A stretch of 64,000 nt of DNA, from NCBI RefSeq assembly GCF_053078305.1, contig NZ_CP166879.1. One strand, given 5' to 3'. Below are positions 16,225 through 27,579 of the stretch, piece by piece. Under the pieces are notes generated by a model. The model was not told where the DNA came from and searched no databases. It saw nothing but the letters and a program-made list of their open reading frames with translations. The first letter of the stretch is position 1; each line of letters begins with the position of its first letter. A program made the position numbers and the translations under genes.

Positions 16225-16959
16225 ATGCCCAAACTCGATCTAAACGCCCTGAACGAACTGCCGAAGGTAGATCGCATTCTGGCGCTGGCAGAAACTAACG
16301 CCCAACTGGAAAAACTGGACGCTGAAGGCCGCGTAGCCTGGGCGCTGGATAATCTGCCCGGTGAATATGTGCTTTCTTCCAGCTTCGGCATTCAGGCGGC
16401 GGTGAGCCTGCATCTGGTGAATCAGATTCGCCCGGATATTCCAGTGATCCTCACCGATACCGGTTACTTGTTCCCGGAAACCTACCGCTTTATTGACGAG
16501 TTAACGGACAAACTCAAGCTCAACCTGAAAGTGTACCGTGCTACCGAAAGCGCAGCCTGGCAGGAAGCACGCTACGGAAAACTGTGGGAACAGGGCGTTG
16601 AAGGCATTGAAAAGTACAATGACATCAACAAAGTCGAACCGATGAACCGGGCGCTGAAAGAACTTAACGCGCAAACGTGGTTTGCTGGCCTGCGCCGCGA
16701 ACAATCCGGCAGCCGCGCCAATTTACCGGTGCTGGCAATTCAGCGTGGCGTATTTAAAGTGCTGCCGATTATCGACTGGGATAACCGAACTATTTATCAG
16801 TACCTGCAAAAACATGGCCTTAAATATCACCCATTATGGGATGAAGGATATTTATCGGTTGGTGATACCCATACAACCCGTAAATGGGAACCCGGCATGG
16901 CTGAAGAAGAAACGCGTTTCTTTGGCTTAAAAAGGGAATGTGGGTTACACGAAGGGTAA
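16225..16959 (+). CDS. cysH: Phosphoadenosine phosphosulfate (PAPS) reductase
   Basis: 244 aa from ATG 16225 ([14 protein letters not shown]...); C-terminal ECGLH motif. Confidence 0.95.
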
Positions 16960-17223
16960 ATATTGCCGGATAAATTAAACGCCTCTGTCAGAAATGATGG
17001 GGGCGTTTTTATTTTGCGAGCAGCATTCCTGATTTTAAACGTGAACGCCGCTGGAAGAATTAACAGGTATAGAATGGTGTTGGGTGCTTGAGGCTGTCTG
17101 GCGTTAAGCATTCGCGAGGTTCCAGATGGACAAAAGCCCCAGGCGATATTTCTATCAACCTGAGGCCAGCGTTCGAACCTAAGCAATTCGAATGTTAGTC
17201 TCTTCTTTGCAGGGAGGCAAGAC

Positions 17224-17376
17224 ATGCTGACAAAATATGCCCTTGTGGCAATCATCGTACTGTGTTGTACAGTACTGGGATTCACGCTGATGGTAGGCGA
17301 CTCGTTGTGTGAGTTGAGTATCAGAGAACGTGGTATGGAGTTTAAGGCTGTTCTCGCTTACGAATCGAAGAAGTAG
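17224..17376 (+). CDS. Hok/Gef-family type I toxin (50 aa), intact
   Basis: Translation [50 protein letters not shown]: hydrophobic N-terminal helix, conserved SLCE and AYES motifs of the Hok family; GGAGG 9 nt upstream of ATG. Below the track's 60-aa cutoff. Confidence 0.85.
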
Positions 17377-17381
17377 CCACC

Positions 17382-17403
17382 ACGCGGGGGTAAAACCCCG
17401 CGT
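17382..17403 (+). terminator. GC-rich hairpin directly after the hok-like ORF (mRNA 3' structure or terminator)
   Basis: ACGCGGGGG-TAAAA-CCCCGCGT perfect 8-bp stem; the following T-tract is weak. Confidence 0.4.
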
Positions 17404-17568
17404 ATTGAATTGTGATGGTTTGGTCTCCTGCACCCTTTTTTAAATTTATATTTTTTATGTGAATATATTGTCTCTATTTATTATTATGAATTTCAAATGA
17501 AAATCATAAATTTATTCACAATATAAATGTTTTATTGGCTGATATATATCACAGATAATTTTTAAAAT

Positions 17569-20268
17569 ATGCGTAAATATCCTTTAAGTTTACTGAAGGA
17601 TAAAAATATTGTGACTTTCTTTGATTTCTGGGGAAAAACCCGACGCGACGAGAAAGAAGGGGGTGACGACTATCACCTTCTTTGCTGGCATTCGCTGGAT
17701 GTGGCCGCGATGGGCTATTTAATGGTTAAAAGAAATTGCTTCGGGCTGGCTGATTATTTTCGTCAATTAGGGATTTCTGACAAGGAACAGGCGGCTCAAT
17801 TTTTCGCCTGGTTGTTGTGCTGGCACGATATTGGAAAATTTGCCCGCTCATTTCAGCAACTTTACCTGCACCCACAACTCAAGGTTCTGGAAGGCGCAAG
17901 AAAGAATTACGAAAAGATCTCTCATTCAACGCTGGGCTACTGGTTGTGGCATCATTATTTAAGTGAATGCGAAGAATTGCTTCCTGCCTCTTCACTCTCT
18001 ACTCGCAAACTTAAACGTGTAATAGCGATGTGGATGCCCATGACTACCGGGCATCATGGTCGGCCCCCTGACCGTATTGATGAACTGGATAATTTTCTGC
18101 CTGAAGACAAAGCTGCCGCACGAGATTTTCTCCTTGAAATCAAGTCACTGTTTCCGCTCATAGAGATTCCCACATTCTGGGATGATGACGAGGGCGTTGA
18201 ACTTTTAAAACAACTTTCCTGGTATATCTCTGCAACAGTCGTACTCGCAGACTGGACGGGTTCGTCAACGCGATTTTTTCCACGCGTCGCACAGACAATG
18301 AATATTAAAGATTACTGGCAGAAAACTTTAGTTCAGGCTCAAAACGCCTTAACCGTCTTTCCTCCAAAAGCAGAAACCGCACCTTTCACCGGAATTAATA
18401 CGCTGTTTCCTTTTATTGAGCACCCGACACCATTACAGCAAAAGGTACTGGATCTGGATATCAGCCAGCCAGGGCCACAGTTATTTATTCTGGAAGATGT
18501 GACTGGCGCAGGTAAAACAGAAGCGGCGCTTATCCTGGCGCACAGGTTGATGGCTGAGAATAAAGCTCAGGGTTTGTTTTTTGGCCTGCCAACAATGGCA
18601 ACGGCCAATGCCATGTACGATCGGCTGGTCAAAACCTGGCTTGCTTTCTTTTCGCCAGAATCCCGCCCCAGCCTGGTGCTGGCACACAGCGCCCGTACAT
18701 TAATGGAACGCTTTAATGAATCACTCTGGTCCGGTGATTTAGTCGGGTCAGAAGAACCGGATGAACAAGCGTTCAGTCAAGGATGTGCAGCCTGGTTTGC
18801 CGACAGTAACAAGAAGGCTTTACTGGCTGAAATTGGCGTCGGCACGCTGGATCAGGCGATGATGGCAGTGATGCCGTTTAAACATAATAATCTGCGGCTT
18901 CTGGGGTTGAGTAACAAAATCCTGCTGGCTGATGAGATCCACGCCTGTGACGCTTACATGTCGTACATTCTTGAAGGGTTGATTGAGCGACAGGTGCGTG
19001 GCGGAAACAGCGTCATTTTGCTTTCTGCTACGTTATCTCAACAGCAGCGCGACAAACTTGTCGCCGCCTTTGCGCGTGGCACAGAGGGCCAGCAAGAAGC
19101 TCCGTTCCTGGAAAAGGATGATTACCCCTGGCTGACGCATGTCACGAAATCCGATGTGCATTCGCACCGGGTAGCGACGCGCAAAGACGTTGAGCGTAGC
19201 GTGAGCGTGGGTTGGCTTCATAGCGAACAAGAATGTATTGCGCGTATCGAATCAGCGGTAAGTCAGGGGAAATGCATCGCCTGGATCCGGAATTCTGTCG
19301 ATGACGCTATTAAGGTTTATCGTCAGTTACTTGCCCGCGGCGTCATTCCTGCTTCCAGCCTTTCACTTTTTCATAGCCGCTTTGCTTTTAGCGATCGCCA
19401 GCGAATTGAAACGGAAACGCTGGCACGCTTTGGTAAAAATTGTAGTTTAAAAAGATCATCTCAAGTCATTGTTTGTACACAAGTAATTGAGCAAAGTGTG
19501 GATATTGACCTGGACGAAATGATCTCCGACCTGGCCCCCATTGATTTGCTGATCCAGCGAGCGGGGCGATTACAACGGCATATTCGTGATATTAATGGTC
19601 AGTTAAAACGTGATGGAAAAGACGAGCGTTCCCCTCCTGAATTGCTGATTCTGGCCCCCGTCTGGGACGACTCTCCGGGTGACGAATGGTTTGGTAGTGC
19701 GATGCGTAACAGCGCATATGTCTACCCCGATCATGGGCGAATCTGGCTGACGCAGCGAGTATTGCGTGAGCAAGGCGCTATTCAGATGCCACACGCAGCC
19801 CGGCTTCTTATTGAATCCGTCTACGGTGAGGACGTGGTAATGCCGGAAGGATTTGCCCGCAGCGAGCAGGAGCAAGTGGGCAAATATTACTGCGATCGCG
19901 CAATGGCTAAAAAGTTTATGCTGAACTTCAGGCCCGGCTATGCCGCCAATATCAACGATTACCTCCCGGAAAAGCTGTCGACACGTCTGGCTGAAGAGTC
20001 TGTTTCCCTGTGGCTGGCTACCTGTATTGACGGTGTGGTGAAGCCTTATGCCAGCGGTGCTCACGCATGGGAAATGAGCGTTGCCAGAGTGCGTCGAAGC
20101 TGGTGGAAAAAACATCGGGATGAATTTTCTTTACTGGAAGGGGAAGCGTTCAGGCAGTGGTGCATTGAACAACGGCAAGATCCGGAGATGGCAAACGTGA
20201 TTTTAGTCACCGATGACGAAAGCTGCGGGTATTCGGCTACGGAAGGATTGATTGGCAAGGTTGATTGA
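17569..20268 (+). CDS. cas3: Cas3 helicase-nuclease (type I-E)
   Basis: 899-aa ORF; N-terminal HD domain region, DExH helicase motifs (GAGKTEAAL, DEIH). Confidence 0.95.
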   Translation: MRKYPLSLLKDKNIVTFFDFWGKTRRDEKEGGDDYHLLCWHSLDVAAMGYLMVKRNCFGLADYFRQLGISDKEQAAQFFAWLLCWHDIGKFARSFQQLYLHPQLKVLEGARKNYEKISHSTLGYWLWHHYLSECEELLPASSLSTRKLKRVIAMWMPMTTGHHGRPPDRIDELDNFLPEDKAAARDFLLEIKSLFPLIEIPTFWDDDEGVELLKQLSWYISATVVLADWTGSSTRFFPRVAQTMNIKDYWQKTLVQAQNALTVFPPKAETAPFTGINTLFPFIEHPTPLQQKVLDLDISQPGPQLFILEDVTGAGKTEAALILAHRLMAENKAQGLFFGLPTMATANAMYDRLVKTWLAFFSPESRPSLVLAHSARTLMERFNESLWSGDLVGSEEPDEQAFSQGCAAWFADSNKKALLAEIGVGTLDQAMMAVMPFKHNNLRLLGLSNKILLADEIHACDAYMSYILEGLIERQVRGGNSVILLSATLSQQQRDKLVAAFARGTEGQQEAPFLEKDDYPWLTHVTKSDVHSHRVATRKDVERSVSVGWLHSEQECIARIESAVSQGKCIAWIRNSVDDAIKVYRQLLARGVIPASSLSLFHSRFAFSDRQRIETETLARFGKNCSLKRSSQVIVCTQVIEQSVDIDLDEMISDLAPIDLLIQRAGRLQRHIRDINGQLKRDGKDERSPPELLILAPVWDDSPGDEWFGSAMRNSAYVYPDHGRIWLTQRVLREQGAIQMPHAARLLIESVYGEDVVMPEGFARSEQEQVGKYYCDRAMAKKFMLNFRPGYAANINDYLPEKLSTRLAEESVSLWLATCIDGVVKPYASGAHAWEMSVARVRRSWWKKHRDEFSLLEGEAFRQWCIEQRQDPEMANVILVTDDESCGYSATEGLIGKVD

Positions 20269-20297
20269 GATGCCCTGGCGTCGGATGACGCCAGGGC

Positions 20298-20321
20298 TTA
20301 TCCCCGCTGACGCGGGGAACA
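20298..20321 (-). repeat. Solitary CRISPR repeat-like sequence, inverted relative to the arrays
   Basis: TTATCCCCGCTGACGCGGGGAACA matches the reverse complement of the array repeat (TTATCCCCGCTGGCGCGGGGAACA) at 23 of 24 positions; preceded by an 11-bp-stem hairpin at 20272-20297. Confidence 0.7.
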
Positions 20322-26580: not shown

Positions 26581-27579
26581 TGTTCCCCGCGCCAGCGGGG
26601 ATAAACCGGGGGGGCAATAATATGTGCGGCGGATCACCAGGTGTTCCCCGCGCCAGCGGGGATAAACCGTCGGAAAAATGGCTGGCCTCAACGGTGAAAA
26701 CGTGTTCCCCGCGCCAGCGGGGATAAACCGCCAGGGTGAAACTTTTCGCTGACGTAAATAAAGTGTTCCCCGCGCCAGCGGGGATAAACCGACAATCACA
26801 TATACGACGCGAGACGGAGATCGGTGTTCCCCGCGCCAGCGGGGATAAACCGTGATGGGCGAATACAAGCGCTGGCGCAACGAGGTGTTCCCCGCGCCAG
26901 CGGGGATAAACCCGGCATTCTTAACCGGCGCAACAAGGGGGGCGCGTGTTCCCCGCGCCAGCGGGGATAAACCGGTTAACTCCAGGTGGCGCGGCAGTGT
27001 TCAGAAGTGTTCCCCGCGCCAGCGGGGATAAACCGTGCTCTCATTTGTGTCGGCATCACTCGCGTCGGTGTTCCCCGCGCCAGCGGGGATAAACCGTCTG
27101 CCGCGAGCTGGTCTACGCCTACGCCATGGTGTTCCCCGCGCCAGCGGGGATAAACCGACATATGCCACAACCAGGCGAAGAAAAGTGTTCCCCGCGCCAG
27201 CGGGGATAAACCGCCCGTCACCGACGCGCAGTGGCGCTACCGTGAGTGTTCCCCGCGCCAGCGGGGATAAACCGGTCGCTGGGTTATTTTGTGTTGTGGG
27301 GCGATCGTGTTCCCCGCGCCAGCGGGGATAAACCGCTCATATTCGGATTGATCGTGTGTTTCGGTTTGTGTTCCCCGCGCCAGCGGGGATAAACCTGCGT
27401 ATATCTGTTGATGCGCACGGCGTGGCGGGTGTTCCCCGCGCCAGCGGGGATAAACCGAATGATTTAATACCAGACGCAGAGTGCCACACGTGTTCCCCGC
27501 GCCAGCGGGGATAAACCGGGCGCACTGGATGCGATGATGGATATCACTTAGAATTCCCCGCCCCTGCGGTAGAACACCC
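26581..27579 (+). CRISPR. cas-proximal CRISPR array (type I-E): 16 intact repeats plus 1 degenerate terminal repeat, 16 spacers
   Basis: Repeat GTGTTCCCCGCGCCAGCGGGGATAAACCG starting at 26581, 26642, 26702, 26763, 26824, 26885, 26946, 27007, 27068, 27129, 27185, 27246, 27307, 27368, 27429, 27490; degenerate GAATTCCCCGCCCCTGCGGTAGAACACCC at 27551-27579. Confidence 0.97.

Follow-up and report, generated by a model that had tools for sequence, protein, structure and literature searches.

The interval between cysH (16225–16959) and the type I-E cas3 gene (17569–20268), within the 64,000-nt stretch of DNA analyzed here (hereafter the window), raises the question of whether a complete type I toxin–antitoxin locus resides there and, if so, whether its presence is unusual and whether it bears any relation to the neighboring CRISPR-Cas genes. 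An earlier note, made from the sequence alone, had read a 50-codon open reading frame (ORF) in this interval as an intact Hok/Gef-family toxin gene, and this reading is borne out by a Pfam match and by the flanking annotation. The ORF and its surroundings very probably constitute a complete chromosomal hokX/sokX locus (hokG in UniProt), which is a close paralogue of the hokE/sokE locus of K-12 and would employ a mechanism resembling that of hok/sok from plasmid R1. The locus is already known: the literature calls it hokX/sokX, thousands of genomes carry a PGAP annotation for it, and recent surveys of Hok diversity have covered it. The exact 50-aa protein occurs on at least 1000 contigs, bears the UniRef name “Putative protein HokG” (HOKG_ECO57), and is variously called HokG, HokE, or Hok/Gef by different sources. 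Annotation tracks with a size cut-off will nevertheless hide 50-codon genes such as hokX.

The evidence for the toxin begins with the peptide itself. In a profile search, residues 5–46 matched the whole of Pfam PF01848 (HOK_GEF; model positions 1–42 of 42) with an E value of 6.3e-10, and both the SLCE and AYES motifs reported for the peptide are found in its translation. The predicted hydrophobic helix is reflected in a mean hydropathy above 2 across residues 1–28. The Shine–Dalgarno site described earlier is a GGAGG located 6 nt 5′ of the hok ATG, and the G+C-rich hairpin that had been seen past the stop codon has a stem of 8 bp (Table 1). A scan of one genome per species for relatives yielded 56 loci with peptides 72–100% identical, from Escherichia, Pseudocitrobacter, Kluyvera, Klebsiella, Citrobacter, Enterobacter, Lelliottia, and other genera. 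Among 47 aligned relatives, the Hok logo residues C14, T16, L28-C29-E30, and E39 of HokX are invariant or nearly so, with C14, L28, C29, E30, and E39 strictly invariant. Moreover, the third position varies in 42 of the 50 codons, as compared to the second position in 17 of 50. Variation dominated by third positions, together with invariant key residues, argues that the HokX peptide is under purifying selection, and the Pfam match and codon-position pattern rule out a chance ORF.

Assignment of HokX to a named Hok family is less straightforward. The nearest NCBIfam models are the HokA equivalog (NF007290) and the Hok subfamily (NF007279), and HokX falls short of the curated cut-off of each, scoring 53 bits against the required 89 and 39.5 bits against the required 73, respectively. 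Because of these two scores, PGAP names the product merely “Hok/Gef family protein”, and this is the feature that lies under the match in every gene-holding genome among those listed. HokX belongs to a separate HokX/HokE-like branch that PGAP names at the Pfam level only. No solved structure of the HokX peptide was found. In published tests, 42 of 45 Hok homologues were toxic, HokE among them.

Table 1. Features of the hokX/sokX locus, with positions numbered from the first nucleotide of the window.
Feature	Coordinates	Strand	Details
Candidate hok promoter, -10 box	17070–17075	+	TAGAAT; predicts a start at G17082
Full-length hokX mRNA (about 360 nt)	17082–17441	+	Ends inferred from the RF01794 start, fold, and limits of conservation (47 relatives)
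tac-like 5′ element	17082–17095	+	GGGUGCUUGAGGCU; alternative folds, pairing with fbi or forming a 5′ hairpin (17082–17113)
Sok-target stem-loop of the hok leader	17162–17202	+	Loop CCUAAGCAA (17178–17186) with CUAA, YUNR-type; seen in the 3′-shortened fold
12-codon upstream ORF	17192–17230	+	TGA stop overlaps the hok start (ATGCTGA)
hok Shine–Dalgarno site	17213–17217	+	GGAGG; GGAGGCAA nearly invariant in relatives
hokX (hokG) CDS	17224–17376	+	ATG start, TAG stop, 50 aa; N-terminal hydrophobic helix, Cys29, Tyr46
Hairpin presenting the Tyr46 codon	17346–17378	+	UAC (17359–17361) plus G17362 form TACG in a 9-nt loop
G+C-rich 3′ hairpin	17382–17403	+	ACGCGGGG-GUAAAA-CCCCGCGU; predicted by folding; core stem (helix 13) 100% paired in 47 relatives
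fbi-like 3′ element and T-run	17422–17435; 17436–17441	+	GGUCUC..GCACCC, then T6; pairs with 17082–17095 in the minimum-free-energy fold
SokX antisense RNA (59 nt by homology)	17184→17126	-	Single-stranded 5′ tail, terminator hairpin (17166→17136), U-run (17135→17132)
Candidate sok promoter	17192–17220	-	-35 TTGCCT (17220→17215), 17-nt spacer, -10 TAACAT (17197→17192)

The antisense RNA, which could not be found by eye in the initial reading, can now be placed on the minus strand through its homology to the annotated K-12 ncRNA sokX (b4701), with which 57 of its 59 bases match. Its position relative to hok is the same as that of annotated K-12 sokE relative to hokE. The terminator hairpin predicted for Sok by folding is 93.7% paired when the 47 relatives are read on the minus strand, as compared to 83.8% on the plus strand, and in 39 of the 47 relatives it includes a U-G wobble that would become a C-A mismatch if read on the other strand. 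This strand asymmetry argues that a minus-strand RNA is the structure under selection. The candidate sok promoter predicts a start at about 17185, in agreement with the 5′ end of K-12 sokX. All 47 relatives retain the -10 bases A17192, T17193, T17196, and A17197 of this promoter (TA..AT) as well as the GGCAA within its -35 box. The -35 box overlaps the hok Shine–Dalgarno site, an arrangement that is likewise seen in other hok/sok loci. Among paralogues, no part of the leader varies more than the 5′ tail of Sok, which is complementary to the loop of the target and to the 5′ arm of that loop, and this variability would fit locus-specific recognition.

A second line of evidence for a hok/sok-type leader comes from Rfam. 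Family RF01794 (“sok”) matched positions 17082–17239 of the plus strand over its full model (1–157), scoring 111.7 bits where the gathering score is 59, and no other Rfam family reached its own gathering score anywhere in the 64-kb window. Control loci (K-12 hokE/sokE, K-12 sokX, and plasmid srnB) demonstrated that RF01794 marks the hok-sense leader, with the annotated Sok RNAs lying inside it on the opposite strand. Matches to ctRNA_p42d and Spot_42 (16917–17017) were set aside, as they fall far under the respective gathering scores and coincide with the cysH terminator.

A scan with consensus promoter and terminator models called neither the hok nor the sok promoter and reported only the cysH terminator (16977–17008); the sok promoter matches 8 of 12 consensus positions and so falls under the threshold of the scan. 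It was through conservation, and through homology to annotated sokX and sokE, that both promoters could be located. Upstream of hok, a TAnnAT sequence occurs 6 nt before GGGTGC in the window and in all 53 relatives listed, and the context further upstream is unrelated between them. This conserved spacing places the hok 5′ end at about 17082. No good -35 box accompanies the hok -10 box, which would fit a weak promoter. As a side observation, a partly palindromic motif (TTTTGCGAGCAG.. or TTTACGAG..CTCGTAAA) is found at 17008–17030 of the window and upstream of seven relatives in otherwise unrelated contexts, so that the start of the mobile or duplicated unit may lie upstream of the hok promoter.

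In the alignment of the 47 relatives, conservation starts and ends at the same two positions (17082 and 17441) that delimit the predicted mRNA. The functional unit, at about 17070–17441, exceeds the extent first assigned to the locus (17100–17410). When folded in full, the RNA is more stable than expected (z = -4.5) and its 5′ end closes on its 3′ end, with GGGUGC and GAGGCU of the former pairing with GGUCUC..GCACCC of the latter, as would be required for the fold-back elements (tac/fbi) that had been proposed for checking. The six-pair core of this interaction (GGGUGC/GCACCC) is 100% paired in the 47 relatives, and a second helix is 82% paired. The core is near invariant, showing only G-C/G-U changes, so its support comes from conservation rather than from covariation.

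Removal of about 40 nt from the 3′ end changes the predicted fold, such that the 5′ end pairs locally (17082–17113) and the Sok-target stem-loop forms. The structure of the shortened RNA is 87.4% paired in the 47 relatives, as compared to 38–43% for slid controls, and its covariation score is 0.196, as compared to at most 0.08 in slid controls. Furthermore, 164 cells are changed on both sides of a pair, as compared to 69 ± 10 in shuffles. The structures tested were derived from the window sequence itself, which favors them over the slid controls. The target helix (columns 99–115/125–140) is 88.8% paired, with six pairs changed on both sides (for example, GC in 25 and AU in 18 sequences, or CG in 34 and UA in 8), and the target stem-loop is also part of the Rfam consensus structure. 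Columns 18 and 38 of the 5′ hairpin covary as well (UA in 22, CG in 15, and UG in 10 of the 47 relatives). In the 15 sequences where column 18 is C, column 38 is always G, and so is the fbi partner in 10 of them. From the sequences, this pattern is as would be expected if one base alternated between two partners.

Plasmid R1 encodes a long mok frame that overlaps hok and must be translated for hok itself to be translated, and a corresponding frame was sought at this locus. No R1-like long mok ORF exists in any frame of the window or of 46 relatives, nor does a mok frame overlap the hok start; what is present is a 12-codon upstream ORF that ends at +7. This short ORF is a candidate substitute for mok that could provide translational coupling. 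Its ATG is found at -32 in 26 of the 47 relatives, while an ATG at -33, in frame with hok, is found in 13 of 47. Several loci of Klebsiella and Kluyvera additionally possess an ATG at -50 or -51, situated 8–9 nt after a GAGG, much like the position of mok in R1. Since the upstream ATG coincides with the sok -10 box when read on the minus strand, the conservation of this ATG is ambiguous. A second upstream start, ATG 17126, was considered as mok and rejected, as it opens an ORF of only 18 codons with a TAA stop at 17180–17182 and is absent in most relatives. In the K-12 remnant, the target loop reads CCCAAACAA rather than the CCUAAGCAA of the window; the K-12 loop has lost the U of its CUAA motif and thereby also the TAA stop of the 17126 ORF. 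On the whole, the HokX/HokE branch seems to have exchanged the long mok for a very short upstream ORF or an in-frame extension.

Another feature of potential consequence is the codon for Tyr46, which is presented in the loop of a hairpin (helix 12) that is 93.8% paired in the 47 relatives. The TACG sequence is kept in 45 of the 47, and the other two hard-code Cys as TGCG. According to a recent survey, Tyr-to-Cys recoding at the corresponding position has been observed for hokC, hokD, and hokE, the Tyr codon followed by GAA there is conserved as a TadA editing site, and a disulfide between Cys29 and Cys46 is essential for the toxicity of HokB (bioRxiv 10.1101/2025.08.07.668861). By analogy, A17360 is likely a putative TadA A-to-I site at which Tyr46 would be recoded to Cys. 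HokX possesses both Cys29 and Tyr46, so the same editing safeguard probably applies to it. Details of the short ORF and of Tyr46 may be of interest to specialists, and they extend known biology rather than define new kinds of systems.

The sequences directly show the family membership, the sequence and structure elements, their conservation, and the distribution of the locus, and a likely mechanism can be proposed from them by analogy with R1 hok/sok, covering where the transcripts start and stop, how they are processed, and how coupling, editing, and toxicity would come about. In this proposal, transcription from a weak, constitutive promoter (-10 TAGAAT) would yield a hok mRNA of about 360 nt, whose 5′ end (GGGUGC..GAGGCU) would pair with its 3′ end (GGUCUC..GCACCC) to keep the RNA closed to both ribosomes and Sok. 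Slow trimming from the 3′ end would subsequently remove the 3′ partner, allowing the local 5′ hairpin and the Sok-target stem-loop to form in the trimmed mRNA. The 59-nt Sok, transcribed from the opposite-strand promoter that overlaps the hok ribosome-binding site, would then pair with its target and block ribosome entry upstream of hok. Where Sok is lacking, ribosomes could reach hok, possibly by way of the 12-codon ORF with its stop overlapping the hok AUG, and the 50-aa membrane peptide would be made and damage the inner membrane. Full toxicity may also require TadA editing of Tyr46 to Cys.

One of the nearest counterparts of the locus is hokE/sokE of K-12. HokE is identical to HokX at 39 of 50 residues, and the two loci have in common their leader architecture, the position of Sok, the 3′ hairpin, and the TACG motif at Tyr46. 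They differ in chromosomal site, hokE being near ybdK, and the hokE-type loci fetched from other Escherichia genomes possess a LexA-box-like sequence (CTGTATAAATAAACAG) about 60 nt upstream of GGGTGC that hokX lacks. LexA control of hokX was considered in connection with CTGGAAGAATTAACAG at 17051–17066 and rejected as a chance match, since this sequence lies at a different distance from the -10 box and neither K-12 nor the other hokX alleles conserve it. Between hokE and hokX, the target loop and the 5′ tail of Sok differ in sequence, so cross-regulation of the two loci is unlikely.

Plasmid-borne relatives, namely hok/sok of R1 and srnB of F-type plasmids, share with hokX a Hok/Gef peptide, a cis-antisense Sok over the leader, a fold-back of the mRNA between its 5′ and 3′ ends, a target hairpin whose loop contains a YUNR motif, and overlap of the sok promoter with the hok ribosome-binding site. 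The srnB locus matches RF01794 in the same register as hokX. Peptide identity between HokX and plasmid Hok or SrnB is about 40–43%, and the long, overlapping mok of R1 has as its counterpart in hokX just the 12-codon ORF. Given its chromosomal, core-like location, hokX does not serve in plasmid maintenance.

As to whether an intact copy is unusual, the statement in the earlier note regarding K-12 was correct. Homology to MG1655 begins at the cysH stop and ends with the G of the hok ATG (17226), beyond which the sequences are unrelated; NC_000913.3 annotates just the ncRNA sokX (b4701) in this interval, with no intact hok. The leader and Sok region are 97–99% identical to K-12. What did not hold up is the implied rarity of the complete toxin gene, as most E. 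coli genomes have the complete locus. Of 5426 complete E. coli genomes, 4146 (~76%, the share with the toxin gene) contain 80% or more of the hok mRNA region (17082–17410), and 3416 (~63%) also have the 3′ part (17330–17445) unbroken and so the complete locus. The window region is 100% identical to that of strain PapM-32-1. A hok gene homologous to hokX of E. coli B has been described in the cysH–iap region (PMC7232551), and hok together with sokX adjoins cysH in 90% of 237 urinary isolates, the remainder having sokX only, like K-12 (PMC12736100). In E. coli, an intact locus is the rule and the truncated copy of K-12 the exception, and a practical value of these observations is as a reminder that K-12 is atypical at this locus.

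Within E. coli, hokX of strain B, HOKG_ECO57 of O157:H7, and sokX (b4701) of K-12 all occupy the same site downstream of cysH as the window copy. The K-12 locus lacks everything past the hok ATG, and the copies of E. coli B and ATCC 8739 contain insertion sequences (IS) that are absent from the complete copy in the window. In other strains, IS186/IS421 inserts into the hokX 3′ hairpin (GGGG-N6-CCCC). Homology breaks at 17398, for example, in ATCC 8739 and in derivatives of E. coli B, and is followed by an IS421-family transposase gene, and the leader of hokX in ATCC 8739 additionally carries IS150. In K-12, hokE is likewise cut by IS186 at the equivalent 3′ hairpin.

Such insertions bear on a second reading, namely that hokX/sokX is intact but silent, a domesticated or decaying locus kept by linkage or weak selection, as has been proposed for other chromosomal hok genes. 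About 1200 of the complete E. coli genomes possess the K-12-like deletion and about 800 are broken at 17398 inside the 3′ hairpin by IS186/IS421, and the IS150 in the ATCC 8739 leader adds a further route to inactivation. Destruction of hokX at this frequency shows that its loss is tolerated, and the lack of a long mok would also suit a silent locus. The chromosomal hokA, hokB, and hokC loci, moreover, failed to bring about post-segregational killing, which speaks against activity. Repeated inactivation by IS elements is, however, itself expected of a gene that is harmful when expressed. In addition, conservation across genera extends to the peptide and to every RNA element, variation falls mainly on third codon positions, and the stems covary, a pattern not expected of a relic, and the toxicity of nearly all Hok homologues tested also stands against silence. 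We therefore regard a silent locus as unlikely and prefer a complete hokX/sokX with an R1-like mechanism. In the searched literature, no experiments on the hokX/sokX locus were found beyond RNA-seq and Ribo-seq data from EDL933, in which coverage of “sok_15/sokX” was low to modest.

The final question concerns the neighboring cas3 gene. It had been suggested that transcription or antisense control of hok could overlap with CRISPR-Cas regulation. In its fullest form, this would tie hokX/sokX to type I-E CRISPR-Cas, with read-through or Sok modulating cas3, or with Hok serving as an abortive-infection back-up. Were it true, a type I toxin–antitoxin locus would be coupled to CRISPR-Cas immunity, and read-through would determine how much Cas3 is present in strains carrying this cas variant. 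The arrangement of the genes is suggestive in several respects: hokX and cas3 are co-directional, only ~127 nt of AT-rich DNA separate the predicted end of the hok mRNA (17441) from the cas3 ATG (17569), the consensus scan calls no canonical terminator between these two points, and the same exact hokX–cas3 junction occurs in 2239 of the 5426 complete E. coli genomes. On the other hand, the T6 run past fbi is a plausible stop signal. Synteny also points elsewhere, as cysH lies directly upstream in 12 of the 56 loci fetched from other species’ genomes, representing several genera, and cas3 lies downstream in just 3 of the 12. It is thus cysH that the hok locus accompanies, and its position next to cas3 is incidental. 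The hok gene is kept in E. coli B and ATCC 8739, where the stretch through iap has no annotated cas genes, while K-12 conversely retains cas3 without hok. In addition, a published survey found hok near defence systems in 12% of cases, as compared to 9.4% expected at random, and thus not enriched. The suggested regulatory overlap finds no support in these comparisons, and it is highly improbable that hokX transcription or Sok control reads into the AT-rich region upstream of cas3, or that the locus is tied to CRISPR-Cas in any of the ways described.

The CRISPR region of the window does hold some features of its own. Type I-E arrays are found as nine repeats at 14–528, two degenerate copies at 1033–1120, and 16 repeats at 26582–27518, after cas2e. 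A lone CRISPR-repeat-like 27-mer with three mismatches to the type I-E repeat is located on the minus strand at 20294–20320, in the cas3–casA intergenic region and away from the arrays. Finally, where the window has its second array, the otherwise identical PapM-32-1 shows an annotated iap gene, and the two records thus differ downstream of cas2e.
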